Shown here one piece after another: positions 375 to 59,087 of a DNA stretch of 64,000 nt. Numbering within the stretch: position 1 is the stretch's first letter; the number at the start of each line of letters is the position of its first letter. The DNA lies in assembly GCA_018175075.1 (NCBI GenBank), contig GCA_018175075.1_4100.1, one strand, 5' to 3'. Below the pieces are notes generated by a model. It was given only the letters and a program-made list of their open reading frames with translations. It had not been told where the DNA came from and did not search any database. This DNA comes from a phage. The translations under genes and the position numbers were made by a program.

Positions 375-892
375 TGGATATTAATGAGTTGTTGAAATTA
401 GTGTTTAATCGTGAACGCCGCGATACAAGACCAATTGAATATCAAGATGTGATACGCATTGAAACTGATTTCTGTTATGGTAAAACAACTCATGACCTTT
501 TGAATCTCTCTGGAAAACGCTATGCTGATGTTTGTTTTTCAGAGAGAAGTGATGGTTCGGAAATAACGAGTACTGATATTGTTTGTTACGCACGCAGTGC
601 TGATAAATCTTATGAAATAGAACTTATATATTCCCCTAGTTCTAAAACAAATCATCACCGCCATATTTTATATGATGTTTACACACCACCTGGTATTGCT
701 GAATATTTTGTTATTGATTATAGTACTGAAGAAAATGTGTTTCAACAAAGTTTGATTCATAACTTTGAGGTGAATGATCCATTAGTACCAAAGTTGTTCA
801 AACTACTTGACACCATAGATGTTGATTTTGAATTTGTTATGTGCATTAGAACTTCTTTATTCAATGAATTCATGGAACTTTTTAATATATGA
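374..892 (+). CDS. hypothetical protein, 172 aa
   Basis: ORF; start overlaps upstream stop (TAATG). Confidence 0.55.
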   Translation: MDINELLKLVFNRERRDTRPIEYQDVIRIETDFCYGKTTHDLLNLSGKRYADVCFSERSDGSEITSTDIVCYARSADKSYEIELIYSPSSKTNHHRHILYDVYTPPGIAEYFVIDYSTEENVFQQSLIHNFEVNDPLVPKLFKLLDTIDVDFEFVMCIRTSLFNEFMELFNI

Positions 893-3681: not shown

Positions 3682-4032
3682 ATGAAAATTATTTTATTTT
3701 TTGTATGTATGTTAATGTGTGGATTGTCATATGCTGAACCATTGGAAGGTTTAGTTTGTACAGATGGTAATATTAAACATATCTATCAAGGTGATAGTGA
3801 CGATCGAGATATTGTATATATTGATGGACAATCATATACGTTTGTTAAAGAGCATACAGTAGGCGACATTAGCTTCACTGAGTTTTCTAACGACACAGAC
3901 CCTAACTTCTTAGCGTTTATTGAAGTAGATGTATATGAAGATAGTAATGGCACACAATATGCTAAATTAGTTATGATGCGTCGTGGTGCTAAAGAAACTA
4001 GTTTTGGTGGCTTGTGTAAATATAAGGATTGA
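3682..4032 (+). CDS. secreted small protein (signal peptide), 116 aa
   Basis: GGAGGA RBS; signal peptide; similar architecture to 2931-3290. Confidence 0.55.
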   Translation: MKIILFFVCMLMCGLSYAEPLEGLVCTDGNIKHIYQGDSDDRDIVYIDGQSYTFVKEHTVGDISFTEFSNDTDPNFLAFIEVDVYEDSNGTQYAKLVMMRRGAKETSFGGLCKYKD

Positions 4033-28210: not shown

Positions 28211-29401
28211 TTACAATTGTCTAGGTGTATCCAGTACATATCTATTTGTACGAGGACCACCATCATCATGCGTTCCGGTTGAATATATATTTTTCATATC
28301 AGCAGTTAGGAAAGTACGATACGAACCGCGATATATTTTAATTTTATCATACATAGAATATGTTATTCCTGACGGCAATGGACATGCAGTAAATTTACCA
28401 ATGGTAACATTAGAACCAACACCTAATGTACCAGCATAACCACTCGCATTTAAACCAGTTGCATATACACCTGTACTCGTAACTAGTATACTAGATTGTG
28501 ATGCATATCCAGTATGGATTGAATAATAAGTTCCTGATGGTAATGTAGTACTATTATTCCCTAATACTGCTAGTGCTGTACTATTCGTAGTGTTATTACC
28601 CCATGCCCCATTATTAGCTAATCCACCAACTAGAAACTGACGTGCTCCTGTATTTGGATTCTCCACTAAAGCACTGACAGCACCAAATGAACAAACAGTA
28701 TATTGTAATGTTTTTGTATATGTGGTACTTGGCTTATACAAAGTATATTCATTAAATGGTGTCCATGTGGTACTAGTACTTATGCCAGATGTACTACCAC
28801 CAATATATAAATTATTTTGTGTATCAAAAAACATTGCACAGTAATTTGTTGACTGTATTTGTGCAATATCTACATCTGGTGTTACCGCTTTAACAAATGA
28901 ACCATCTGATATTTGATAAGTAGTTCCTGTACCATCTGCGAATTGTCTAGCACTATTCCACCCTGTACTCCATATTGTATTATTATCCATTAAGAAAGTA
29001 AACCACGTAGTACCTGCATACATCTGTTTAATTGAAGTACTTGAACTTTGTGTGTACAAATTTTCAATATATTGGTTATAACTTAAAAATGATGTAGTAC
29101 TAGTTTCTAAACCAATATGACTACCATATCCACAATAAAAATAATTTAAGTCATTATCTTGTACTAACAAAGTTCCTTGTGTCATCCAGCAATCTTTGAC
29201 ATTTTCTCTAATTAATGTCCACGACCTTACTGCATTATTATTTCCTCTACCAAACTTCCCATAACTATTACTGCCTCGTGCGTATAGTTGACCGTCGGTA
29301 TAAAGTACAACAACCTCAGTATCAGTTGGTATTATTTTCTTAATTTGTAGTGGTACAGGCACAATATTCCCATAATTCATCATTCTTGCAAAAGGTAACA
29401 T
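28211..29401 (-). CDS. RCC1-like repeat protein paralog H, 396 aa
   Basis: MLPFARMMNYGNI; repeats SNSYGKFGRG, GYAGTLGVG. Confidence 0.7.
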   Translation of the reverse strand: MLPFARMMNYGNIVPVPLQIKKIIPTDTEVVVLYTDGQLYARGSNSYGKFGRGNNNAVRSWTLIRENVKDCWMTQGTLLVQDNDLNYFYCGYGSHIGLETSTTSFLSYNQYIENLYTQSSSTSIKQMYAGTTWFTFLMDNNTIWSTGWNSARQFADGTGTTYQISDGSFVKAVTPDVDIAQIQSTNYCAMFFDTQNNLYIGGSTSGISTSTTWTPFNEYTLYKPSTTYTKTLQYTVCSFGAVSALVENPNTGARQFLVGGLANNGAWGNNTTNSTALAVLGNNSTTLPSGTYYSIHTGYASQSSILVTSTGVYATGLNASGYAGTLGVGSNVTIGKFTACPLPSGITYSMYDKIKIYRGSYRTFLTADMKNIYSTGTHDDGGPRTNRYVLDTPRQL

Positions 29402-29472
29402 AATTCCCCTCCTTATTCATTATACTATATTTAATACAAATAAGAAAGCCAGTATCAAGTACTGGCCTATAT
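29402..29472 (-). promoter_or_regulatory. late-type cassette: terminator hairpin, TATAAT, GGAGG RBS
   Basis: GCCAGTA-TCAA-GTACTGGC hairpin plus TATAAT/RBS. Confidence 0.55.
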
Positions 29473-30642
29473 TTAAACTGGCGAATCTAATATAAATTCT
29501 AAACTACTAATGCCACCATATGTGACATCTGTTCCCGTGCTATATACAAAATTACCATCAGTTATATAAGTTCGGTTATAACTACCTGCCATCTGTGACT
29601 TACTATAATCAAACCCATCAGGTACGATTGCTTTGGTATATACTAATGCATTAGTAGATGTACCAATACCTAACATACCAGCTTGTGTAGATTGATTGTA
29701 GCCGCAACAATATATACCATCTGTTGTAGCAATAACTTGGTTATAATATGAAGTATTGTTAGCAATGCTTACTACATCACCAGGTGGCATTAGTGATGCT
29801 GTTTGTACCTCAAATGCTCTATAATCTTTGAGAGAACCATCTTTCCCATCTGCTTGTGCACCAAATATTCTTGAACCACCATTTGCGATGATAGTTTTAC
29901 CAGTGGGATCAGTGCCTATTGCCATTGCCATTGAAGTACCATTATTCACATAGTACTTTATATTAATTGTATTACTTAAGCTGGTAGGAGCACCATAATA
30001 TATATTATATAACTTACTTCCTGAACTTGTAACTGCATTGACTCTTCCTGTATAAAATAACCATCCTTGGTTTGTAACATAACCGTGCATTAAATTACTT
30101 GCAAACAATTTAACAGGTAATTGATTTGCTGCGGTAGGAACAGTACTTTTGACGAATCTACCAGAAACATGGTTAATTGTTGTCCCATCACCCAACTGAC
30201 CATCCGACCCTACTCCAGTACTCCATATTGTTTGGTCTGATAGTAACACACTTGTAGTCTGATAACTAACGGCTATATCTAATATTGGTAATGTTAATGT
30301 ATTGAATATAGGCATAGCAGATGTCCATATTGATACTCCTGACCCTTTCATACCAACAGTTGTTGAACTTCCACTGTACCATATTTCATTATTGCTTTTC
30401 TTAACAACTATCGACGTGGCACCCATCCAAAAATCTTCAACACCAGAAGTACTAAAAGTCCATGTAGTAACAGTATTTTTGTGACCTAAACCCAAAATAC
30501 CATATGCATTATCACCACGCACATATAAATCACCACTGTTTGTTAAAACAGCAACATTATAGTTGTTAGCAAGTATTTTTTTAATATTTGGTTTATCAGG
30601 TGCAATATTCCCGTACTTAAACATCCTCGCAAAAGGTAACAT
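29473..30642 (-). CDS. RCC1-like repeat protein paralog I, 389 aa
   Basis: MLPFARMFKYGNIAP; repeats DNAYGILGLG, SDGQLGDG, TQAGMLGIG. Confidence 0.7.
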   Translation of the reverse strand: MLPFARMFKYGNIAPDKPNIKKILANNYNVAVLTNSGDLYVRGDNAYGILGLGHKNTVTTWTFSTSGVEDFWMGATSIVVKKSNNEIWYSGSSTTVGMKGSGVSIWTSAMPIFNTLTLPILDIAVSYQTTSVLLSDQTIWSTGVGSDGQLGDGTTINHVSGRFVKSTVPTAANQLPVKLFASNLMHGYVTNQGWLFYTGRVNAVTSSGSKLYNIYYGAPTSLSNTINIKYYVNNGTSMAMAIGTDPTGKTIIANGGSRIFGAQADGKDGSLKDYRAFEVQTASLMPPGDVVSIANNTSYYNQVIATTDGIYCCGYNQSTQAGMLGIGTSTNALVYTKAIVPDGFDYSKSQMAGSYNRTYITDGNFVYSTGTDVTYGGISSLEFILDSPV

Positions 30643-30711
30643 ATTTCCTCCTTATTCATTATACTATATTTAATACAAATAAGAATGCCAGTATCAAGTA
30701 CTGGCATTATG
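30643..30711 (-). promoter_or_regulatory. late-type cassette: terminator hairpin, TATAAT, GGAGG RBS
   Basis: GCCAGTATCAAGTACTGGC hairpin plus TATAAT/RBS. Confidence 0.55.
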
Positions 30712-31821
30712 TTATTTTGGTAAATCAATTTTAGTAAAGACTGCAACATCTGCACTTGCACCTGGAATGGCGTAATACGATCCAGTACTATATACATTCC
30801 CGTCTTTGGTTAATAATGATGTTAATCCGTCACTAAAAGCAACATCACTAATCTCACTAACTTCTACAGGTAATTGTAAATTAGCAGCACTATAGATAGC
30901 ACCCGTTTGAGAATTGTTTAATCCCAAACCACGGTTTCCCCCAATACCTTTCTGATATGCACTAGTTAATATAATTTGCGTAGCCGTGCTTGTTGCCTCT
31001 GAATTTGTCATAAACAAAGGTGAATTATTAGGTAAAGTACTTACAGGAACTGCTTTGAATGTAGTTGAATCTGAACTAAGAAAGTTTGGAGTTGTACCAC
31101 ATGTGAAATATGATGTACCATTATAGTAATTGAGTGTATGTCCACCAATAGCTGCATCTATTACACCAGAACTACGCAGTCCCCAAATGTTAACTTGTGT
31201 TCTGTTCCCTGTGCCATGTAATCCACGGTCATTCCACCCTGAACTATATAACTTATTATCTATGCTAATATACATACTATCATTAGGAGTAGACATAACT
31301 TTACGCACATTAGAAGCACATAGTGTTAATGTATATATTGATGAAGAACCAATCCCCAATACACCACGGTATCCATTAGCCCCAGCACCATAGAGTACTG
31401 AACTTGAACTTAGTACAAATATTACACCACTATTGCATACAATATTAGCAATTTGATTCACTGGTATTGTATTTGTAAACCACTCGGTTCTATCAACTAA
31501 TGTAGTACTGTAAGAAGTAGTTGTAGAAGATGTGAACCAGTACGTTTGACCTGATGTCCATATCGTATTATCATTTTTAATAATAACAAGTGTTCGTCCT
31601 CCAGTGAAAAAATTAGAAACATCTGCACTTACTAATATCCATGAAGATACCGTGTTGGTATTACCATTTCCAGATTCACCACCTTGATTTCTGCCTATGT
31701 AATACAATTCATGTGAATCAGTCAATACGAATTGACCTTGAGTAGAAGCACCAACTTTAATTATATTTTTAGGACCAGAGGTAATATTCCCATAATCAAA
31801 TAGTCTTACAAAAGGTAACAT
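30712..31821 (-). CDS. RCC1-like repeat protein paralog J, 369 aa
   Basis: start at MLPFVRLFDYGNI; RBS overlaps stop of K (TAGGAGGGAATATG). Confidence 0.65.
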   Translation of the reverse strand: MLPFVRLFDYGNITSGPKNIIKVGASTQGQFVLTDSHELYYIGRNQGGESGNGNTNTVSSWILVSADVSNFFTGGRTLVIIKNDNTIWTSGQTYWFTSSTTTSYSTTLVDRTEWFTNTIPVNQIANIVCNSGVIFVLSSSSVLYGAGANGYRGVLGIGSSSIYTLTLCASNVRKVMSTPNDSMYISIDNKLYSSGWNDRGLHGTGNRTQVNIWGLRSSGVIDAAIGGHTLNYYNGTSYFTCGTTPNFLSSDSTTFKAVPVSTLPNNSPLFMTNSEATSTATQIILTSAYQKGIGGNRGLGLNNSQTGAIYSAANLQLPVEVSEISDVAFSDGLTSLLTKDGNVYSTGSYYAIPGASADVAVFTKIDLPK

Positions 31822-31829
31822 ATTCCCTC

Positions 31830-33032
31830 CTATTGTTGCCATAACTGCGTTGGCATTAATGTTAGTGTAGTAATACTATAAGTGCCATCAGGCAATCTAC
31901 CACCATTACCATTCCAGCCACCACATGCATATAATTTATAATCTTTAGTAATTATTATGGTTCTGCTCCAATCTTTAGATGCCATAAGAACATTGTCATA
32001 ACCACCACTTATTGCACTAAGATTAAAAATAGCCCAAGTCTTAACTAATGTATTAGTTCCATTACCTTCTTGACCATATGAGTTAGGACCACTACTTCTA
32101 ACATATGGTGCGTATTGTGCCATAGGTGAACCAATTGATGCATTTCCCATATTACTTGGACAAATAAAATTACTGTACTTACTTACATCAACCGTGACCG
32201 ATGTATTCCTAATTGGTGTTAGCTGATTTACTGATGTAGTCGTACCATTACCAGCTTGTCCAGTATTGTTAGACCCACTATAATATACAGGCCCACCAGT
32301 AGTAAACCACCAAGTAACATTGTATGTAGTACTAATATGTTCTACATTACTAATCACGAATTTGTTCAAATATACAACAGAACTACCACCACATCCACTT
32401 TCACCAAAGTTATCCTTACCACAAAACCATGCATCTTTATTTGATTTAATATAGTGCGTTCCTTGTAATGAACATGCCATATCTATAACTTCACCCATAT
32501 TAGTCATAACTGTTAGTGTAGGGATTGAATTTTGATTACCCGACCCACATTCACCATTAGTATTTTTTCCACACGCAATTACTCTACCATCTGTTAATAA
32601 TATTCTAGTACTTTCACCTATATATACACTCTTGATCATATTAGCCATTACGCCAATTTTATTAAATGAAGCAGTAACATCAGTCCATGTTCTCAAATAA
32701 CCACTAACAGGTGTTGCATCTCCATAATCAGAAAATGCACCCACCGACCCAGTGTAGTATATTTTATTATCCAAATCAACCATCAATGAACCATGAACAC
32801 CCAGCCAATAGGCTGCACAGTTACGTGCAAGTACAGTAAATGACGGAACTGCTGCTGAATTCCCAAGACCAAATTGAGACATGTTATTACTACCATAACC
32901 ATATAAAGTATTAGTTGGGCTATGTAGATACATACAGTTTGTATAATGTTGTTGTAAAACATCTGAGAACTCTATAGGTTCTGGCCCTGGTGCAATATTA
33001 CCGTACTTAACCATTCTAGCAAAAGGTAACAT
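31830..33032 (-). CDS. RCC1-like repeat protein paralog K, 400 aa
   Basis: MLPFARMVKYGNIAP; repeats NNMSQFGLG, SYGQEGNG. Confidence 0.7.
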   Translation of the reverse strand: MLPFARMVKYGNIAPGPEPIEFSDVLQQHYTNCMYLHSPTNTLYGYGSNNMSQFGLGNSAAVPSFTVLARNCAAYWLGVHGSLMVDLDNKIYYTGSVGAFSDYGDATPVSGYLRTWTDVTASFNKIGVMANMIKSVYIGESTRILLTDGRVIACGKNTNGECGSGNQNSIPTLTVMTNMGEVIDMACSLQGTHYIKSNKDAWFCGKDNFGESGCGGSSVVYLNKFVISNVEHISTTYNVTWWFTTGGPVYYSGSNNTGQAGNGTTTSVNQLTPIRNTSVTVDVSKYSNFICPSNMGNASIGSPMAQYAPYVRSSGPNSYGQEGNGTNTLVKTWAIFNLSAISGGYDNVLMASKDWSRTIIITKDYKLYACGGWNGNGGRLPDGTYSITTLTLMPTQLWQQ

Positions 33033-33104
33033 ATTTCCCTCCTTTATTCATTATATTATATTTAATCAAAAATAAAAGCCAGTACTTGAGTACTGGCATA
33101 TCAA
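33033..33104 (-). promoter_or_regulatory. late-type cassette: terminator hairpin, TATAAT, GGAGG RBS
   Basis: perfect palindrome GCCAGTACT-TGA-AGTACTGGC plus TATAAT/RBS. Confidence 0.55.
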
Positions 33105-34271
33105 TTACGAAAAACGTGGATCATCAAGAACAAACACGGTACTACTTGGACCACCTTGTGTGGTGACAGCACTAGTACTGTAAAGAAAGTTACCATCTGT
33201 CATATAAGTTCTACGATTCGTACAAATAACTCTTACTTTATTCATATCGATATCAGGATTAGGTAATGGACATGAAGTATACACTGATACATCAGTACTT
33301 GTTCCTATTCCCAGCGTACCTTCATTTGTGGTTGAACCGCTATTCAACCCACTAGCATATATACCACTGCTTGTAATAACAAAAGTGGCGTAGAATGGAG
33401 AACCTTCACCTATATTTAATTTAGTTCCAGGTGGTTGTCTTGCCGCAGCAACCGCACCATATGCTTTCCCACCAGATGTGGCAAGATTACCAAGAGCACC
33501 ATACTGTTGTTGTCCACCATTATACACTGTGTTAGTGCCATCACTGTTAGTGTGGATACCAATAGAATTATAGTTACTGTTGCTATATACTAAAGCGGCA
33601 TTAGAAGTAACTGTATTTCGTGTATATACTTTATATTGTTGGGTAAAATTACCACTAGTGGACGTACCCTGTACAGTTCCAGTGTAGTATATATATCCGT
33701 CTGTACCAATGAATGAGTGCATAACACTACCTGCAAAAATTTTTTCTGGAGTAACACCTGACGGTATTGTTGATTGTACAAATCTACCCACTACATTTGT
33801 TGTTGTATTATTTCCCAATTGACCGGAGTCACCATAACCACTTGACCATATGGTATTGTTCTCAAGAAGAACACTAATTGATAATCTTGATAAAGCTATT
33901 TCTTTAACATCACTTTCTAATGTATCAAAAAATGAAGTACAATTTGTCCAAGTGTTCACTACGCTAGAACTAACACCAATTTGTTTATTATCACCAGAAC
34001 TATAATAATTCCCATCATATGTTTGTATAAGTATAACAGAACCACCAACCCATACTTTATCAACTGAACCAAACGTTCTTGTCCATGTGGTAACTATATC
34101 CCCGCTATTATTACCCAATCCAAAGCAACCACTACTATCTACGCCTCGTACATATAAATCTCCTGAAGTCATCAGAACTGCACAGAATGATTGTGCACCT
34201 TTAACATCTTTAATTGGCTCTGGTTCAGGTGCAACATTTCCATAATCAAACATTCTAACAAAAGGTAACAT
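33105..34271 (-). CDS. RCC1-like repeat protein paralog L, 388 aa
   Basis: start at MLPFVRMFDYGNV; repeats DSGQLGNN, NEGTLGIG; first gene of the cluster. Confidence 0.7.
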   Translation of the reverse strand: MLPFVRMFDYGNVAPEPEPIKDVKGAQSFCAVLMTSGDLYVRGVDSSGCFGLGNNSGDIVTTWTRTFGSVDKVWVGGSVILIQTYDGNYYSSGDNKQIGVSSSVVNTWTNCTSFFDTLESDVKEIALSRLSISVLLENNTIWSSGYGDSGQLGNNTTTNVVGRFVQSTIPSGVTPEKIFAGSVMHSFIGTDGYIYYTGTVQGTSTSGNFTQQYKVYTRNTVTSNAALVYSNSNYNSIGIHTNSDGTNTVYNGGQQQYGALGNLATSGGKAYGAVAAARQPPGTKLNIGEGSPFYATFVITSSGIYASGLNSGSTTNEGTLGIGTSTDVSVYTSCPLPNPDIDMNKVRVICTNRRTYMTDGNFLYSTSAVTTQGGPSSTVFVLDDPRFS

Positions 34272-34373
34272 ATTTCCTCCTTTATTCATTATATCATATT
34301 TACCCCATAAACAAAACCCTTGACAACCTTCCAGTACTGGTGTACTATAGAAGGAATATAAGGAGAACTACAC
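34272..34373. promoter_or_regulatory. divergent promoter region
   Basis: plus strand TTGACA (34320), 17 nt, TACTAT; minus strand TATAAT plus AGGAGG for paralog L. Confidence 0.5.
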
Positions 34374-38765: not shown

Positions 38766-39403
38766 TTAAACACATAGAGACAGGGGAAGCTCCTAGTGAA
38801 CAACCTTTATGTACAGGCGAATTGTTAAAATTCAGCCTGGACAAATGCGATCACTAGGATTCTCCCCAGGCTAAACCCCGTAATCATAGGTAGTCATAAG
38901 TAATCATATATAAACATTTATATGAGCACCGTAGAATCACAGAATGATTATATATGATTCAGTACTGATTAGTATAGACAAGATTGCTCAAGAATGCACG
39001 GAAATGTGTGTGAATGATTCAGTACTGATATCCCACTAAGTAGGCAGAGGAAGTCTGCCGTACTTTGTAGTTTCCAAGCTCCTTTTCCATTTTGCAAATT
39101 ACATCAAATGTAATCAAAAGTAATCACACAATGATTAGTACTGAATTATTACTTTCACCTTAATTACAATTACCCTTTTACCCTTCGGGGTAAAATTCCA
39201 TTACCCCTTGAGGCTCCAGCAAAAAGTTGGTTAGTACTCCATCCTAAATCTCGATCCTAAAAATTTTGGAGTACCTATGAAATAAAAGTTGGATCTTCGA
39301 AAGTTGAAATTTACGTTGGGACGTTTATGATTTGTGGGATATAATGATGTTTGTAGTCGGGTAGTTCTCAAGAATATCAGTACTGAATGATGAAAGAAAG
39401 CTA

Positions 39404-39756: not shown

Positions 39757-39950
39757 ACGGATTTTGGGCGTAGTTACCCTGGATGGATTTTGGGCGTAGA
39801 TATGTCTAGCCCTCCAGAAGTCTGGAAGTAAAGATGGCTATCCATCTAGACGGCTAAACGGCTAGATTTCTGGATGGCTGGATGGCTAGACGTTTGGACG
39901 GCTAAACGGCTAGATGGTTACACGTCTGGAAGTATAGACGGCTAAATCAA
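39757..39950. repeat. iteron-like short repeat cluster
   Basis: GGATTTTGGGCGTAG twice; at least 7 copies of (A/G)ACGGCTA/GATGGCTA within about 110 bp; TCTGGAAG three times. Confidence 0.55.
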
Positions 39951-42247: not shown

Positions 42248-42384
42248 AGAAAAATTAGTTTAGTATAGTTACAATTGTGCACCCGGTGGGTTAGCTGTTG
42301 TCATGGGGTATATTATGCCAGTACTGGATAGTGCTGTCAATACTTTTTTAATATTCAGTACTGAAAACTATTTTTAAAAAGTAC

Positions 42385-42412
42385 TTGCAAACTATGTTTA
42401 AAGGCGTATAAT
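42385..42412 (+). promoter_or_regulatory. class-I early promoter driving candidate ncRNA
   Basis: TTGCAA, 16 nt, TATAAT, GTTTTACATC. Confidence 0.55.
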
Positions 42413-42418
42413 GTTTTA

Positions 42419-42502
42419 CATCAGGACGGGGAACGAAATAAGTAACTTCCCGTTAAGTAGCCCAGGAGTAAGGCACACGAAAAACTCCCCTGATAAAATA
42501 GT
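42419..42502 (+). ncRNA. candidate structured RNA, copy 1
   Basis: about 80 nt without ATG; internal hairpin CGGGGAA...TTCCCG and terminal ATCAGG...CCTGAT pairing; near-identical copy at 53635. Confidence 0.4.
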
Positions 42503-42530
42503 TTGACAATTGTTTTTAAAAGCGTATAAT
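42503..42530 (+). promoter_or_regulatory. sigma70-like promoter
   Basis: TTGACA, 16 nt, TATAAT. Confidence 0.55.
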
Positions 42531-42562: not shown

Positions 42563-43174
42563 ATGAAAACTATCACTACTACTACTTTCGTTATGGATTT
42601 TTCTGAATTGAACGCAGAACAAAAAACGTCAGCTATCGAACTGGTTCGGGAACGTGAAAAAAACTCAAACGACAATTATTTTTCTGAAAGTGAAATTGAA
42701 TACTATAAAGAAACAGTACTACCGGAATATGGCATTAATGACGCTGAAATACAATTCAGTGGCTTTTGGTCCCAGGGTGACGGTGCATCAATCAGTACTG
42801 ACCACGTTGACGCAGTGAAGTTTTTACGCAAGGTAAGAGCATTAACTAAGTATCGCTCAATCCGTCACCTGCTGAATGAAGATGATTTGGCGATGAGTGT
42901 AAAGCGTTCGCACTCCCACTACTCGCATGAGAATACTGTAAGCGGGTACATTGAATCGGCTTACACTGATTTAACCGCAAAACAAGAAACGTTAGTTAAT
43001 GAGCTTGAGGAACTACTCACTGAAACTATTCGTGAATTGTCCCGCAAGTTGTACCGTGATTTAGAGAATGCATATGAGGATCAATTCACCACTGAAAACA
43101 TTACGGCACTGATTGAGGGTAACGAATATCAATTCAATGTTATTGATGGCGTAGTAGAATCAATCGAATATTAA
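42563..43174 (+). CDS. hypothetical acidic protein, 203 aa
   Basis: GAGGG RBS; acidic; WSQGDGASI and HSHYSHEN motifs. Confidence 0.55.
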   Translation: MKTITTTTFVMDFSELNAEQKTSAIELVREREKNSNDNYFSESEIEYYKETVLPEYGINDAEIQFSGFWSQGDGASISTDHVDAVKFLRKVRALTKYRSIRHLLNEDDLAMSVKRSHSHYSHENTVSGYIESAYTDLTAKQETLVNELEELLTETIRELSRKLYRDLENAYEDQFTTENITALIEGNEYQFNVIDGVVESIEY

Positions 43175-45756: not shown

Positions 45757-45778
45757 AGCCCACCTGGTGGGCTTTTTT
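45757..45778 (+). terminator. rho-independent terminator
   Basis: AGCCCACC-TGGTGGGCT hairpin then TTTTTT. Confidence 0.65.
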
Positions 45779-45832: not shown

Positions 45833-45860
45833 TTGACATTACCGCAAAAAGGCGTAGAAT
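45833..45860 (+). promoter_or_regulatory. sigma70-like promoter
   Basis: TTGACA, 16 nt, TAGAAT. Confidence 0.5.
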
Positions 45861-45866
45861 ATATTA

Positions 45867-45945
45867 CATCAAGACGGGGAGCACTAAGTAGACCGCCAGT
45901 AAGTCGAACGAAAAACTGGACACGTCGAGAAAACTTTGATACACT
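45867..45945 (+). ncRNA. candidate structured RNA, divergent copy 3 (or long 5' leader of 45984 gene)
   Basis: shares CATCARGACGGGGA, AGTAAG and ACGAAAAACT blocks with copies at 42419 and 53635; no ORF. Confidence 0.3.
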
Positions 45946-45983: not shown

Positions 45984-46466
45984 ATGGCTAATGTAAAATC
46001 ATTCATCAAAGCACTGGTAGCAAATGAAACTAACGTCGCGGCTGAGATCCTGGCTGAACTGGATAACGATACCATGAAAGCGGTACGCAATAATTTTAAC
46101 ATCGCTTACAGTACTGCGAAAGAACTACAAGCAAATAAAGCGGCAGAAATTGAAGCGGCAAAGGCGGCCCGTGAAGCAGAACTACAAGCAACAATTGAAA
46201 GTATTCAGGCGGCAGTAGTTGGATTGGATCTGGAAGTAGTTACAGAGATGGCACAAAAAGCCCTGGCGAAAAAGTACGGTGAAGATAAGCCAGAAGTAAA
46301 AGCTAAAAAATGGATTCAAGAACGTGTAGCGGTAGTACTTGATAACGGGGAAGAATATCTGATTCCGGTGCGTGGTAACTGCATTGCGGTAGTACTGGAT
46401 GCGATTAACTCCAGTGGTATGACTCGCGAGGAATGGATCGAAGCTCATCGCAAAGTTGAAGCATAA
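45984..46466 (+). CDS. hypothetical protein, 160 aa (Ala/Glu-rich)
   Basis: ATG with GAGGA RBS. Confidence 0.55.
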   Translation: MANVKSFIKALVANETNVAAEILAELDNDTMKAVRNNFNIAYSTAKELQANKAAEIEAAKAAREAELQATIESIQAAVVGLDLEVVTEMAQKALAKKYGEDKPEVKAKKWIQERVAVVLDNGEEYLIPVRGNCIAVVLDAINSSGMTREEWIEAHRKVEA

Positions 46467-49338: not shown

Positions 49339-49473
49339 ATGAATCCTAACGGTATAATTTACAGTACTCCTAAAACGAAAGCAGACAAGGTAAACGCTAA
49401 AAAAGCGAAAGTAAAGGAGTACATCAAGCAAGGCATGACGCGAAAGGCCGCAGTACTTAAAGCTAAAAAATAA
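49339..49473 (+). CDS. small basic protein, 44 aa
   Basis: TAAATG coupling; Lys-rich. Confidence 0.35.
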   Translation: MNPNGIIYSTPKTKADKVNAKKAKVKEYIKQGMTRKAAVLKAKK

Positions 49474-49484
49474 ATGAAAAAAGT

Positions 49485-49507
49485 GGTTGACTTCGGTCAG
49501 CCATTTT
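49485..49507 (+). terminator. rho-independent terminator
   Basis: GGTTGAC-TTCG-GTCAGCC hairpin then ATTTTG. Confidence 0.65.
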
Positions 49508-49539
49508 GCTATTATATATTCATTGAGAGATAGCTCACT

Positions 49540-49567
49540 AGCCCACAGGGTGCGGAAGTGTATCTAT
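49540..49567 (+). repeat. AGCCCACAGGGTGC element, forward copy
   Basis: AGCCCACAGGGTGCGGAAGTGTATCTAT between terminator and promoter. Confidence 0.45.
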
Positions 49568-53317: not shown

Positions 53318-53463
53318 AAGAATTCTTATTCGAAGTAGTGTTTCAAGGTGTCGGTAGTAACCAACTGATTCGATCAAGTGGTTACAATGTCAACCAGGCA
53401 TGGAATAACATTAAACAAATGTACCCGAACGCTATCACCTATCGCAACCCGAAAGAAGTTTAA
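53314..53463 (+). CDS. hypothetical small protein, 49 aa
   Basis: ATGA overlap with upstream stop; followed by terminator. Confidence 0.4.
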   Translation: MKEFLFEVVFQGVGSNQLIRSSGYNVNQAWNNIKQMYPNAITYRNPKEV

Positions 53464-53477
53464 AAATAATTGAAAAA

Positions 53478-53502
53478 GGGATTGACTCCGGTCAGTCCCT
53501 TT
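53478..53502 (+). terminator. rho-independent terminator
   Basis: GGGATTGACTCCGGTCAGTCCC hairpin then TTT. Confidence 0.65.
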
Positions 53503-53529
53503 GCTATTATATACGCATAGAAACAAATC

Positions 53530-53557
53530 AGCCCACCGGGTGCATAAATGTATCTAT
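53530..53557 (+). repeat. AGCCCACCGGGTGC element, forward copy
   Basis: AGCCCACCGGGTGCATAAATGTATCTAT, followed by GCTGGTGG. Confidence 0.45.
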
Positions 53558-53600: not shown

Positions 53601-53628
53601 TTGCATTGTACTTAGAATAAAGTATAAT
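53601..53628 (+). promoter_or_regulatory. class-I early promoter driving candidate ncRNA
   Basis: TTGCAT, 16 nt, TATAAT, GTTTTACATC. Confidence 0.55.
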
Positions 53629-53634
53629 GTTTTA

Positions 53635-53715
53635 CATCAGGACGGGGAACGAAACAAGTAACCCCGTTAAGTAGTCCAGGAGTAAGACATACGAAAAACT
53701 CCCCTGATAAAATAG
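53635..53715 (+). ncRNA. candidate structured RNA, copy 2
   Basis: near-identical to 42419-42502 with stem changes that keep pairing (CGGGG...CCCCG); no ORF. Confidence 0.4.
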
Positions 53716-53716
53716 T

Positions 53717-53744
53717 TTGACAATAGAAAGTAAACGAGTATAAT
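53717..53744 (+). promoter_or_regulatory. sigma70-like promoter
   Basis: TTGACA, 16 nt, TATAAT. Confidence 0.55.
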
Positions 53745-53777: not shown

Positions 53778-54053
53778 ATGCGGATTCTACTGACAGCTAA
53801 CGAAATCGAACAAGTACTGACTACTAACCTGGAAGACTGGAAACGTGAAGCAGATATCCAGGCGGTTCAACAGCTTAACGATGAGTTAACGCCGGATGAC
53901 TTAAGCAAGATTGTAGATCCTCAATTCTACGAAGATATCCACGACACCGCGTTAAGCGTCGAGGATGTACTAGATAAGCACTACATTGATATTGATTTGC
54001 AGGTTTACGGTCGTAAAAACTTTATCACTATTCACGACATTTACAATAATTAA
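53778..54053 (+). CDS. hypothetical acidic protein, 91 aa
   Basis: ATG with AAGGAAA RBS. Confidence 0.55.
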   Translation: MRILLTANEIEQVLTTNLEDWKREADIQAVQQLNDELTPDDLSKIVDPQFYEDIHDTALSVEDVLDKHYIDIDLQVYGRKNFITIHDIYNN

Positions 54054-56146: not shown

Positions 56147-56731
56147 ATGCGTAATTATACTAAATTCATCCGTACACTGTCAGAAATGGAAACCAACAAA
56201 GAGATCCTTTCAGCTTGTCGGTTAGCTGGCCTGGAGATCATCGGGGCGGGATCTTCCCGTATAGTTTTCGCTTTAAATGATCGGTTAGTGATTAAGGTCG
56301 CGAATTGTGATGCGGGTGTAGAACAAAATGAAACTGAATGTAAGGTATGGAATTTTTTAGACTATGACCGCCCTCAGTTGAAACAGTACTTTGCAAAGGT
56401 GCATATGCATTTATGCGATCCTGATAATATGTTTATCGTTATGGATCGGTTGAGTACTGCAAGCAAAGGCAGTGTGAAGCACGTTAACGCGTGCAATGAA
56501 TTAAAGTACAATATTAAACGTAATGCAATCGAACGCCAGCACCGCTTTGCTGATGCACTACAACACGTTGATGATACATTATCAACACTAACGATAAGAG
56601 ATATCAGAAAACAGAATATCGGCCAGGATCGTAATGGACTTATTAAAGTACTTGATTACGGTTTAACCCGCAATATCTGGAATCAGTACTATAAAAAGCG
56701 TGATGTAGCAGCAAGTAAGGTAACACGATAA
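56147..56731 (+). CDS. putative protein-kinase-like protein, 194 aa
   Basis: AAGGAG RBS; Gly-loop-like IIGAGSSRIV, VIKVA, catalytic-loop-like RDIRKQNIG and LDYG (DFG-like). Confidence 0.5.
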   Translation: MRNYTKFIRTLSEMETNKEILSACRLAGLEIIGAGSSRIVFALNDRLVIKVANCDAGVEQNETECKVWNFLDYDRPQLKQYFAKVHMHLCDPDNMFIVMDRLSTASKGSVKHVNACNELKYNIKRNAIERQHRFADALQHVDDTLSTLTIRDIRKQNIGQDRNGLIKVLDYGLTRNIWNQYYKKRDVAASKVTR

Positions 56732-56746
56732 AAAAGATTAAAAAAG

Positions 56747-56771
56747 GGATTGACTCCGGTCAGTCCCTTTG
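56747..56771 (+). terminator. rho-independent terminator
   Basis: GGGATTGACTCCGGTCAGTCCC hairpin then TTT. Confidence 0.65.
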
Positions 56772-56802
56772 CTATTATATATTCATTGAGAGATAACTCA
56801 CT

Positions 56803-56830
56803 GACCCATAGGGTGCATAAGTGTATCTAT
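56803..56830 (+). repeat. AGCCCA(N)AGGGTGC element, forward copy
   Basis: GACCCATAGGGTGCATAAGTGTATCTAT. Confidence 0.45.
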
Positions 56831-58990: not shown

Positions 58991-59009
58991 CAAAAAAAGA
59001 ATAAAAAAA

Positions 59010-59034
59010 GGGATTGACTCCGGTCAGTCCCTTT
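59010..59034 (+). terminator. rho-independent terminator
   Basis: GGGATTGACTCCGGTCAGTCCC hairpin then TTT. Confidence 0.65.
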
Positions 59035-59061
59035 GCTATTATATACGCATAGACAAAAACT

Positions 59062-59087
59062 AGCCCACAGGGTGCATAAGTGTATCC
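59062..59087 (+). repeat. AGCCCACAGGGTGC element, forward copy
   Basis: AGCCCACAGGGTGCATAAGTGTATCC, followed by GCTGGTGG at 59122. Confidence 0.45.

Follow-up and report, generated by a model that had tools for sequence, protein, structure and literature searches.

The three repeats identified in the 64,000-nt stretch of phage DNA analysed here (the window; GenBank assembly GCA_018175075.1, contig GCA_018175075.1_4100.1) are copies of one compactly folded RNA element, for which our literature searches found no earlier description. The window comes from an Asteriusvirus, a 121Q/PBECO4/G17-like jumbo coliphage of about 350 kb, and each copy starts at the predicted +1 of the first sigma70 promoter after a terminator. 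The same element is located between the A1 and A2 promoters of phage T7 and in several hundred other enterobacterial phages, and it probably acts on a host component at the start of infection, although this function is inferred only.

Three copies in the terminal repeat of a jumbo coliphage

The 551 nt surrounding copy 2 are 93-98% identical to about 40 Asteriusvirus genomes. Window position 39039 corresponds to coordinate 1 of the 21.5-kb direct terminal repeat of phage vB_Ec-M-J, and the region from 39 to 60 kb is therefore the leading part of the terminal repeat, in which the three copies lie 3.4-14.6 kb from the end. This region is packed with more than 24 early promoter cassettes of one design, AAAAAGTACTTGCA, 16 nt, TATAAT, GTTTTAC, then ATCGAGAGGGGG..., with a GC hairpin, a ribosome-binding site and a small ORF. 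The spacing from the -10 to the start and the first transcribed bases equal those of the T7 A1 promoter, whose start is annotated at nt 498. The features of the three loci are given in the table.

Features of the three loci, in window coordinates
Feature	Position	Strand	Sequence or pairing	Remarks
Copy 1, upstream promoter	42385..42412	+	TTGCAA-16-TATAAT	
Copy 1, RNA element	42420..42494	+		75 nt; 59.1 bits
Copy 1, P1	42420-25 with 42489-94		AUCAGG/CCUGAU	
Copy 1, P2	42426-33 with 42447-53			one bulged G
Copy 1, J2/3	42454-64			
Copy 1, P3	42465-69 with 42484-88			
Copy 1, PK2	42460-62 with 42472-74		GCC/GGC	
Copy 1, second promoter	42503..42530	+	TTGACA-16-TATAAT	consensus; 9 nt after the element
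Copy 1, following ORF	42563-43174			203 aa; phrog_5162; function unknown
Copy 3, terminator	45757-45773			just before the copy 3 promoter
Copy 3, promoter	45833..45860	+	TTGACA-16-TAGAAT	
Copy 3, RNA element	45868..45940	+		73 nt; 44.1 bits; no P2 hairpin
Copy 3, outer helix	45868-72 with 45936-40		AUCAA/UUGAU	read by eye
Copy 3, inner closing helix	45873-76 with 45923-26		GACG/CGUC	read by eye
Copy 3, J2/3	45885-95			
Copy 3, P3	45896-900 with 45915-19		CCAGU/ACUGG	
Copy 3, PK2	45891-93 with 45903-05		GAC/GUC	
Copy 3, following ORF	45984..46466	+		160 aa; phrog_27871; function unknown; syntenic with the element in Munch and Hallingskeid
Copy 2, terminator	53475-502			
Copy 2, upstream promoter	53601..53628	+	TTGCAT-16 nt-TATAAT	predicted start A53636, 7 nt after the -10; promoter repeat families D1/D4/D8 (our labels)
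Copy 2, RNA element	53636..53708	+		73 nt; 65.7 bits
Copy 2, P1	53636-41 with 53703-08		AUCAGG/CCUGAU	
Copy 2, P2	53642-47 with 53662-67		ACGGGG/CCCCGU	
Copy 2, J2/3	53668-78		UAAGUA-GUC-CA	
Copy 2, P3	53679-83 with 53698-702		GGAGU/ACUCC	
Copy 2, PK2	53674-76 with 53686-88		GUC/GAC	
Copy 2, second promoter	53717..53744	+	TTGACA-16-TATAAT	12 of 12 match to the consensus; 9 nt after the element
Copy 2, following ORF	53778..54053	+		91 aa; phrog_14947; function unknown; the same gene follows the element in phage muut

The observation on which this study was based proved to be correct, in that all three copies are present at the predicted places. Copy 1 (42419-42502) and copy 2 (53635-53715) are 91.7% identical (77 of 84 columns), each is about 64% identical to copy 3, and the sequence blocks predicted in copy 3 (CATCARGACGGGGA, AGTAAG and ACGAAAAACT) are present. 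The motif AAGTAG-N5-9-TAAGNCNNACGAAA occurs three times in the window, against none in 100 shuffles, and because the next best hit of a covariance model of the core (model R1; scores in the table) reaches only 8.5 bits, the window holds exactly three copies. However, the hairpin difference that the original prediction regarded as a change preserving pairing (CGGGGAA..TTCCCG to CGGGG..CCCCG) is a single 2-nt indel (TT) and not a pair of substitutions, and copy 1 also requires a bulged G. The true compensatory change between copies 1 and 2 is located elsewhere, in AGCCCA...AAGGCA versus AGTCCA...AAGACA, which is the middle pair of a 3-bp pseudoknot, and P3 of copy 3 is a double compensatory swap (GGAGT/ACTCC to CCAGT/ACTGG). 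Similarity between copies 1 and 2 does run into both flanking promoters at 70-80%, but it peaks at 90-95% exactly over the element.

The interpretation originally offered, that of a small family of candidate ncRNAs, is only partly supported. The three copies are indeed a family selected at the RNA level, because their helices covary, G·U pairs occur only on the sense strand, and the element is better conserved than its flanking promoters. The alternative that had been set in advance as a refutation, that the copies are merely part of a duplicated promoter block, fails, because the same element occurs behind unrelated promoters in T7-like, Munch-like, Erwinia, Vequintavirinae and Stephanstirmvirinae phages. 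In contrast, an independent ncRNA product was not shown: no terminator-like site or other defined 3′ end lies between any copy and the next gene, so that what is shown is the 5′ leader of read-through transcripts from the upstream promoter. Nor is the family small; it is a large class that crosses phage families, with 485 phage records for the T7-type alone.

Copy 3 is followed by a weak promoter-like site rather than by a consensus promoter, and then by a gene. The genes downstream are all of unknown function and differ for each copy, and are therefore uninformative. A second promoter follows the element in T7-likes, Munch, Hallingskeid, A73, muut and LIMEzero, at distances of 2 to more than 40 nt.

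Distribution and covarying structure of the element

A blastn search with copy 2 found the element in every Asteriusvirus record and, at 88-95% identity, in eight coliphages of about 140 kb, including A73 (Vequintavirinae) and muut (Stephanstirmvirinae). In muut, the second promoter and the downstream gene came along with the element, whereas in A73 a different gene follows it. A blastn search with copy 3 found its 35-nt core at 91% identity in the T7-like Yersinia phage phiA1122 (nt 553-587), and at 86-89% in Salmonella phage Munch and its relatives, Klebsiella phage fENko-Kae01 and Erwinia phage Hallingskeid. In T7, the same core (UAAGUA-GNC-NG, stem, UAA-GN′C-NNNN-GAAAA, stem) lies at nt 536-593, or +39 to +96 of the A1 transcript, between the annotated Escherichia coli promoters A1 (498) and A2 (626). 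A T7 query found one copy in each of 485 phage records, which by organism name infect Escherichia, Klebsiella, Salmonella, Yersinia, Enterobacter, Citrobacter, Serratia, Erwinia, Pantoea, Pectobacterium, Providencia and Aeromonas; the listed records are about 37-45 kb, and those inspected are T7-like. Three pattern scans of IMG/VR gave about 60 distinct sequences, and in Pantoea phage LIMEzero the element lies between two annotated host promoters near the left end. No match was found in 5,426 complete E. coli genomes at E<=1. An incomplete scan of bacterial genomes with too loose a pattern, which does not establish absence from bacterial chromosomes, returned mostly chance matches; one hit was a T7-like contig in a MAG, and two Bacteroidales look-alikes fail the PK2 pairing.

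Across all classes, the conserved core reads [helix]-UAAGUA-GNC-(A/C)G-[P3 5′ strand]-(A)UAA-GN′C-NNNN-GAA(A/C)A-[P3 3′ strand]-[closing strand]. We define the class (the T7 A1-leader pseudoknot element) by this junction followed by a hairpin of 4-6 bp carrying this loop, by complementarity between GNC and GN′C, by a closing interaction of the 4-7 nt that follow P3 with either the 5′ end or the P2 loop, and by a position within about 100 nt downstream of a sigma70-type early promoter on the transcribed strand. All three window copies show each of these features, the position being judged by analogy with the annotated T7 A1 start. For the closing interaction, the covariation comes from other class members.

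Helix P3 covaries as GGAG/CUCC, CCAG/CUGG, CCUG/CAGG and CUUG/CAAG, plus a U·G variant. On an unfitted MAFFT alignment of 28 sequences from all classes, 92% of cells pair, four of six pairs show changes on both sides, no shuffle in 500 reaches the observed covariation score, and slid registers fall to 35-47% paired. The GNC of the junction pairs with the GN′C of the P3 loop to give a 3-bp pseudoknot (PK2), the middle pair of which is A-U in 20 sequences, U-A in 5 and C-G in 3, with no exception; all 56 distinct instances are complementary, and the three window copies carry the three different versions. In the T7 class, the loop of hairpin P2 pairs with the 5-6 nt that begin two nt after P3, giving a second pseudoknot (PK1) with the variants GUCAA/UUGAC, GAUUAG/CUAAUC, GUCGGU/ACCGAC, GUCAC/GUGAC and GUCAUC/GAUGAC. 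All five core pairs of PK1 have double changes, and at most one sequence in 32 is unpaired at any of them. In T7, the 3′ strand of PK1 is the -35 hexamer of A2, and where that hexamer has drifted the loop has changed with it, so the RNA pairing is selected in its own right.

Because MAFFT could not align P2 between classes, P2 was counted only on a model-fitted alignment of 36 distinct T7-class sequences, which leans towards the structure of the model. On this alignment, 93.4% of the cells of all four helices are paired, 12 of 20 pairs are compensatory, none of 500 shuffles reaches the observed value on any of the five measures, and slid controls give at most 37% paired. G·U pairs are frequent, for example 13 of 36 at the outer P3 pair, and because they would be A·C mismatches on the other strand, the structure belongs to the transcribed sense strand.

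In the jumbo-phage classes, the strand after P3 pairs with the 5′ end instead of the P2 loop, giving a nested three-way junction. The closing helix is AUCAGG/CCUGAU in copies 1 and 2, muut and A73; CGGC/GCCG, GCGGC/GUCGC and CGGC/GCUG in the Munch group; and ACCGAA/UUCGGU, AUCGAA/UUCGGU and CAACGAA/UUCGUUG in LIMEzero and three similar contigs. RNAfold recovers P1+P2+P3 as the minimum-free-energy fold of copy 2 (-20.9 kcal/mol, z = -3.1) and of copy 1, muut, A73, Munch and the loci that we labelled L055 and L064. The closing helices of copy 3 are only partly recovered by RNAfold, which returned the inner helix but the outer one only in part, and the z-score of this copy is not significant.

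Several other identities were considered and rejected. No tRNA or tmRNA was found in the window. No Rfam 15 family (including the pistol, twister, hammerhead and HDV-like ribozymes, riboswitches and sRNAs) matched at the gathering score in the whole window, at E<=5 on six loci, where the only three weak hits lie on an upstream terminator in the A73 locus, or at E<=10 on the bare elements. A small protein-coding gene is not supported, because the only + strand ORFs over copies 1 and 3 start inside the promoter hexamers (42411 in the -10 and 45833 in the -35), copy 2 has none because the 2-nt indel breaks the frame, and the frames are not conserved between copies. In copy 3 and phiA1122, AAGUCGAACG is identical to a segment of 16S rRNA, but we treat this as coincidence because those loop positions vary across the family (AAGNCNNNNGAA). 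A CRISPR-repeat mimic and a hammerhead-like core (CUGAUAA..GAAA) were dropped because the essential positions and stem lengths do not fit.

Possible role of the element at the start of infection

How might this element act? Our analysis establishes that the repeats are copies of one conserved RNA domain of about 55-75 nt, which host sigma70 RNA polymerase (RNAP) would transcribe from the first early promoter of a transcription unit; that its core is an H-type pseudoknot in which an A-rich strand (GAAAA) closes the P3 loop, flanked by hairpin P2 and closed by a helix; and that the same domain occurs in at least five phage lineages of Enterobacterales, near the left end of the linear genome records checked. 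What follows is inference. Because unrelated phages that share essentially no proteins keep the unpaired nucleotides nearly invariant, we infer that the partner is a conserved host component rather than a phage protein. The element is always promoter-proximal, sits at the genome end that enters first in T7, and is almost always followed by a second strong sigma70 promoter and sometimes by boxA. We speculate that it folds co-transcriptionally and acts in cis on the RNAP that made it, as the put RNA of HK022 does, which would make the first elongation complexes resistant to pausing, backtracking or termination as they run through downstream promoter complexes, -10-like pause signals and the early operon. 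We place a probability of about 0.95 on the structured-RNA family but only about 0.35 on this mechanism, for which functional data are lacking. Several observations count against it: model R1 does not hit putL or putR and the fold differs (a three-helix pseudoknot against a V of two stems), transcripts from A2 and A3 of T7 lack the element yet express the same genes, a simple scan found no internal terminators within the three window units, the spacing from the element to the next -10 varies (about 20, 31 and 60 nt), which argues against a fixed-distance anti-pause role, and only 3 of the more than 24 early promoters here carry the element.

A dedicated upstream promoter followed by the gene's own promoter fits a trans-acting RNA equally well, and this is the main rival, although we consider it somewhat less likely. 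In this view, processing, for example by RNase E at the AU-rich tract just 3′ of the element or as part of the RNase III 'initiator RNA' in T7, would release the folded domain to bind and titrate a host protein or a small molecule, as a decoy, sponge or aptamer made before any phage protein exists. The discrete domain closed from +1 by P1 in copies 1 and 2, the riboswitch-like anatomy of variable stems with invariant junction and loop nucleotides, the sharing of conserved unpaired bases by phages with no common proteins, and the location near the genome end that enters first in T7 are consistent with this possibility; however, the absence of a defined 3′ end, of any demonstrated processing site and of any known ligand or partner speaks against it, and one to three copies per genome may be too few to titrate an abundant target, although the promoters are very strong. 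Less likely still, the pseudoknot might be a mechanically stable 5′ cap that blocks RppH and RNase E entry or scanning and so stabilises the first long early transcripts, as an elaborate version of the plain GC hairpin of the other cassettes. The element occupies the position of that hairpin, which P2 resembles, the closing helix of the nested classes starts at or near the predicted +1, and in T7 a 5′ hairpin paired from +2 precedes it; yet a simple hairpin does this job in the other cassettes, the T7 element is internal (+39), and about 20 near-invariant unpaired nucleotides kept across phage families point to specific recognition and not just stability.

A new self-cleaving ribozyme that frees the RNA or leaves a 5′-OH mRNA appears very unlikely. 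The compact double-pseudoknot fold with invariant junction nucleotides loosely resembles the pistol ribozyme, in which a hairpin whose loop forms a pseudoknot is followed by UUAAAUAG, and small ribozymes are common in phages, but no Rfam ribozyme family matched even at E<=10 on the bare element, the order of the helices differs from pistol, HDV-like and twister folds, and although the T7 A1 template is a standard substrate for in vitro transcription studies, our literature searches found no report of self-cleavage of its transcript. The least likely explanation is that there is no RNA function, the copies being a duplicated promoter block, a DNA-level signal such as an UP element or operator, or the decayed remnant of a small-gene cassette. 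This might be suggested by the similarity that extends through both promoters of copies 1 and 2, by the A-tract just upstream of the A2 -35 in T7-likes and the overlap of PK1 with that -35, and by GGAGT plus 8 nt plus ACG in copies 1 and 2, which resembles a Shine-Dalgarno sequence and a dead start codon when compared with neighbouring cassettes. It is contradicted by compensatory changes in four helices that preserve pairing and not sequence, by the restriction of G·U pairs to one strand, by the variable distance to the next promoter, and by the stronger conservation of the element than of the promoters around it.

We consider it more likely than not that the element represents a new class of host-directed regulatory RNA, and the first functional product of infection in T7-like and several other virulent enterobacterial phages, whether as a protein-independent modifier of host RNAP with a fold unrelated to put, as an aptamer or decoy that neutralises a host factor or immune signal before any phage protein exists, or as a new ribozyme. 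If so, it would have gone unnoticed for 40 years within the A1 leader of T7. The T7 early promoter region is one of the most used pieces of DNA in molecular biology, yet the segment between A1 and A2 carries no annotated function, and our analysis shows that it encodes a doubly pseudoknotted RNA that is kept by several hundred phages, including 350-kb jumbo phages that share almost nothing else with T7. A vague candidate ncRNA thereby becomes a precisely defined object, with known helices for which compensatory mutants can be designed, in a tractable model phage. Whatever its target, it would be an RNA-only host-takeover or transcription-control device acting in the first seconds of infection, and it may also affect in vitro experiments and engineered phages that keep or delete this segment.

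Comparison with known leader RNAs

The putL/putR antiterminator RNA of HK022 is likewise a folded RNA of about 70 nt, which starts within 3 nt of the 5′ end of an early sigma70 transcript (at +3), acts without phage protein, and binds the beta′ zinc-binding domain of RNAP to suppress pausing and termination (PMC9378689). The present element shares the promoter-proximal position in an early transcript made by host RNAP, but binding and antitermination are only inferred by analogy. There is no sequence relation: model R1 found no match at putL or putR in the whole HK022 genome (putL lies on the minus strand at about 28300-28230 of L062, our label for that sequence), and a weak 14-nt look-alike (AAGUCGUUCGAAAA, E=5.3) about 100 nt downstream of putL was dismissed because it has no stem. 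Rfam itself contains no put model. In the cryo-EM model, put is a V of two long stems with a triplex, the A3-G7:C15-U19 duplex and the conserved G35, U28 and A64, and has neither a closing helix nor a GNC:GNC pseudoknot.

The lambda nut and rrn boxB-boxA leaders are also promoter-proximal leader signals. T7 has boxA at 805-817, and in LIMEzero and the contigs that resemble it boxA follows the element by 15-35 nt. However, no boxA consensus (GCTCTTTAACAA) lies within the three window units, the single exact match in the window being at 3842-3853 on the other strand; the element is not a boxB-type hairpin; and in T7 the element and boxA are 200 nt apart and separated by two promoters. The H-type pseudoknot aptamers and ribozymes (preQ1-I, SAM-II and pistol) have a short stem, a loop-to-flank pseudoknot with an A-rich third strand, invariant junction bases and variable stems, but the present element has no expression platform, that is, neither a terminator nor a sequestered ribosome-binding site. 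The plain 5′ stabiliser hairpins of the neighbouring early cassettes have the same promoter type, the same +1 context (ACATC...) and a GGGG..CCCC hairpin in the same place as P2, but they lack the junction, P3, both pseudoknots and the second promoter, and model R1 scores none of them above 8.5 bits.

The T7 A1-A2 inter-promoter leader, part of the A1 'initiator RNA', is the same element, although the T7 record annotates only the promoters. The junction UAAGUA-GAC-AG, the P3 hairpin CCUG...CAGG with its loop AUAA-GUC-GCAC-GAAAAA, and the P2 hairpin all match, and the core of copy 3 is 91% identical to the phiA1122 homologue. T7 differs in having an extra 5′ hairpin before the element, and in T7-likes the closing helix is a pseudoknot between the P2 loop (GUCAA) and UUGAC, whereas in the window copies it is a nested helix starting at +1.

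The genome end and the early region

How is the early region placed in the genome? We found that window position 39039 aligns with coordinate 1 of the 21.5-kb direct terminal repeat of phage vB_Ec-M-J. Therefore, the window spans a genome end, and the early region lies inside the terminal repeat. About 0.8 kb from this inferred genome end, there is a degenerate tandem array of 8-nt units of the GACGGCT / GGATGGCT type. More than 24 early promoter cassettes share one design, in which the first transcribed bases (ATCGAGAGGG) equal those of the T7 A1 promoter, and each cassette has a GC 5′ hairpin before the ribosome-binding site.

Coordinates of the features in the window and in the compared loci
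Location	Strand	Feature
window 39039 onward		alignment with the terminal repeat of vB_Ec-M-J
window 39845-39944		degenerate tandem array
window 39397-59628		early promoter cassettes
window 49467-49559, 53462-53554, 56730-56822, 58994-59086		composite terminator and promoter signal
window 42312-42340	minus	leftward promoter near copy 1
L007 (Salmonella phage Munch) about 395-455		conserved block upstream of the element
window 3842-3853	minus	boxA core
window 22478-34318	minus	ten gene starts of the paralogous array
window 45984-46466; L006 869-1451; L007 858-1436		gene phrog_27871
L155 1098-1156; L199 276-337		Bacteroidales look-alikes
L002 (T7) 640-715; L003 (phiA1122) 625-700		block between A2 and A3

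Other signals and repeated genes in the window

At four places in the window, we observed a composite signal that combines a terminator hairpin (AAAGGGATTGACTCCGGTCAGTCCCTTT) with an embedded promoter (TTGACT-17-TATTAT) and is followed by a conserved block, AGCCCACNGGGTGC, which may be another small transcript or a binding site. An exact boxA core (GCTCTTTAACAA) was also present, although it lies far from the copies of the RNA element. In addition, ten gene starts spaced about 1.2 kb apart share their 5′ ends and upstream regions, which belong to the repeat families designated D6, D9 and D10; this is a tandem array of paralogous genes.

Neighbourhood of the RNA element and comparison with other phages

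A near-consensus leftward promoter (TTGACA-17-CATAAT) lies just upstream of copy 1 of the RNA element, and the same block is conserved upstream of the element in Salmonella phage Munch, which suggests a divergent small transcript. The gene after copy 3 (phrog_27871), whose product is of unknown function and has an alanine/glutamate-rich middle and a conserved C-terminal part, stays next to the element in three jumbo-phage lineages, represented by the window and by loci L006 and L007. Two Bacteroidales genome segments (L155 and L199) that score 28–30 bits with the core model of the element overlap gene starts and fail the GNC:GN′C pairing, and they are therefore chance look-alikes. Finally, T7-like phages also conserve a block between the A2 and A3 promoters (GTCTTCTAGGTGACTTAAGCGCACCACGGCACATAAGGTGAAAC), as seen in T7 and phiA1122; this block has hairpin potential and may be a second leader structure.
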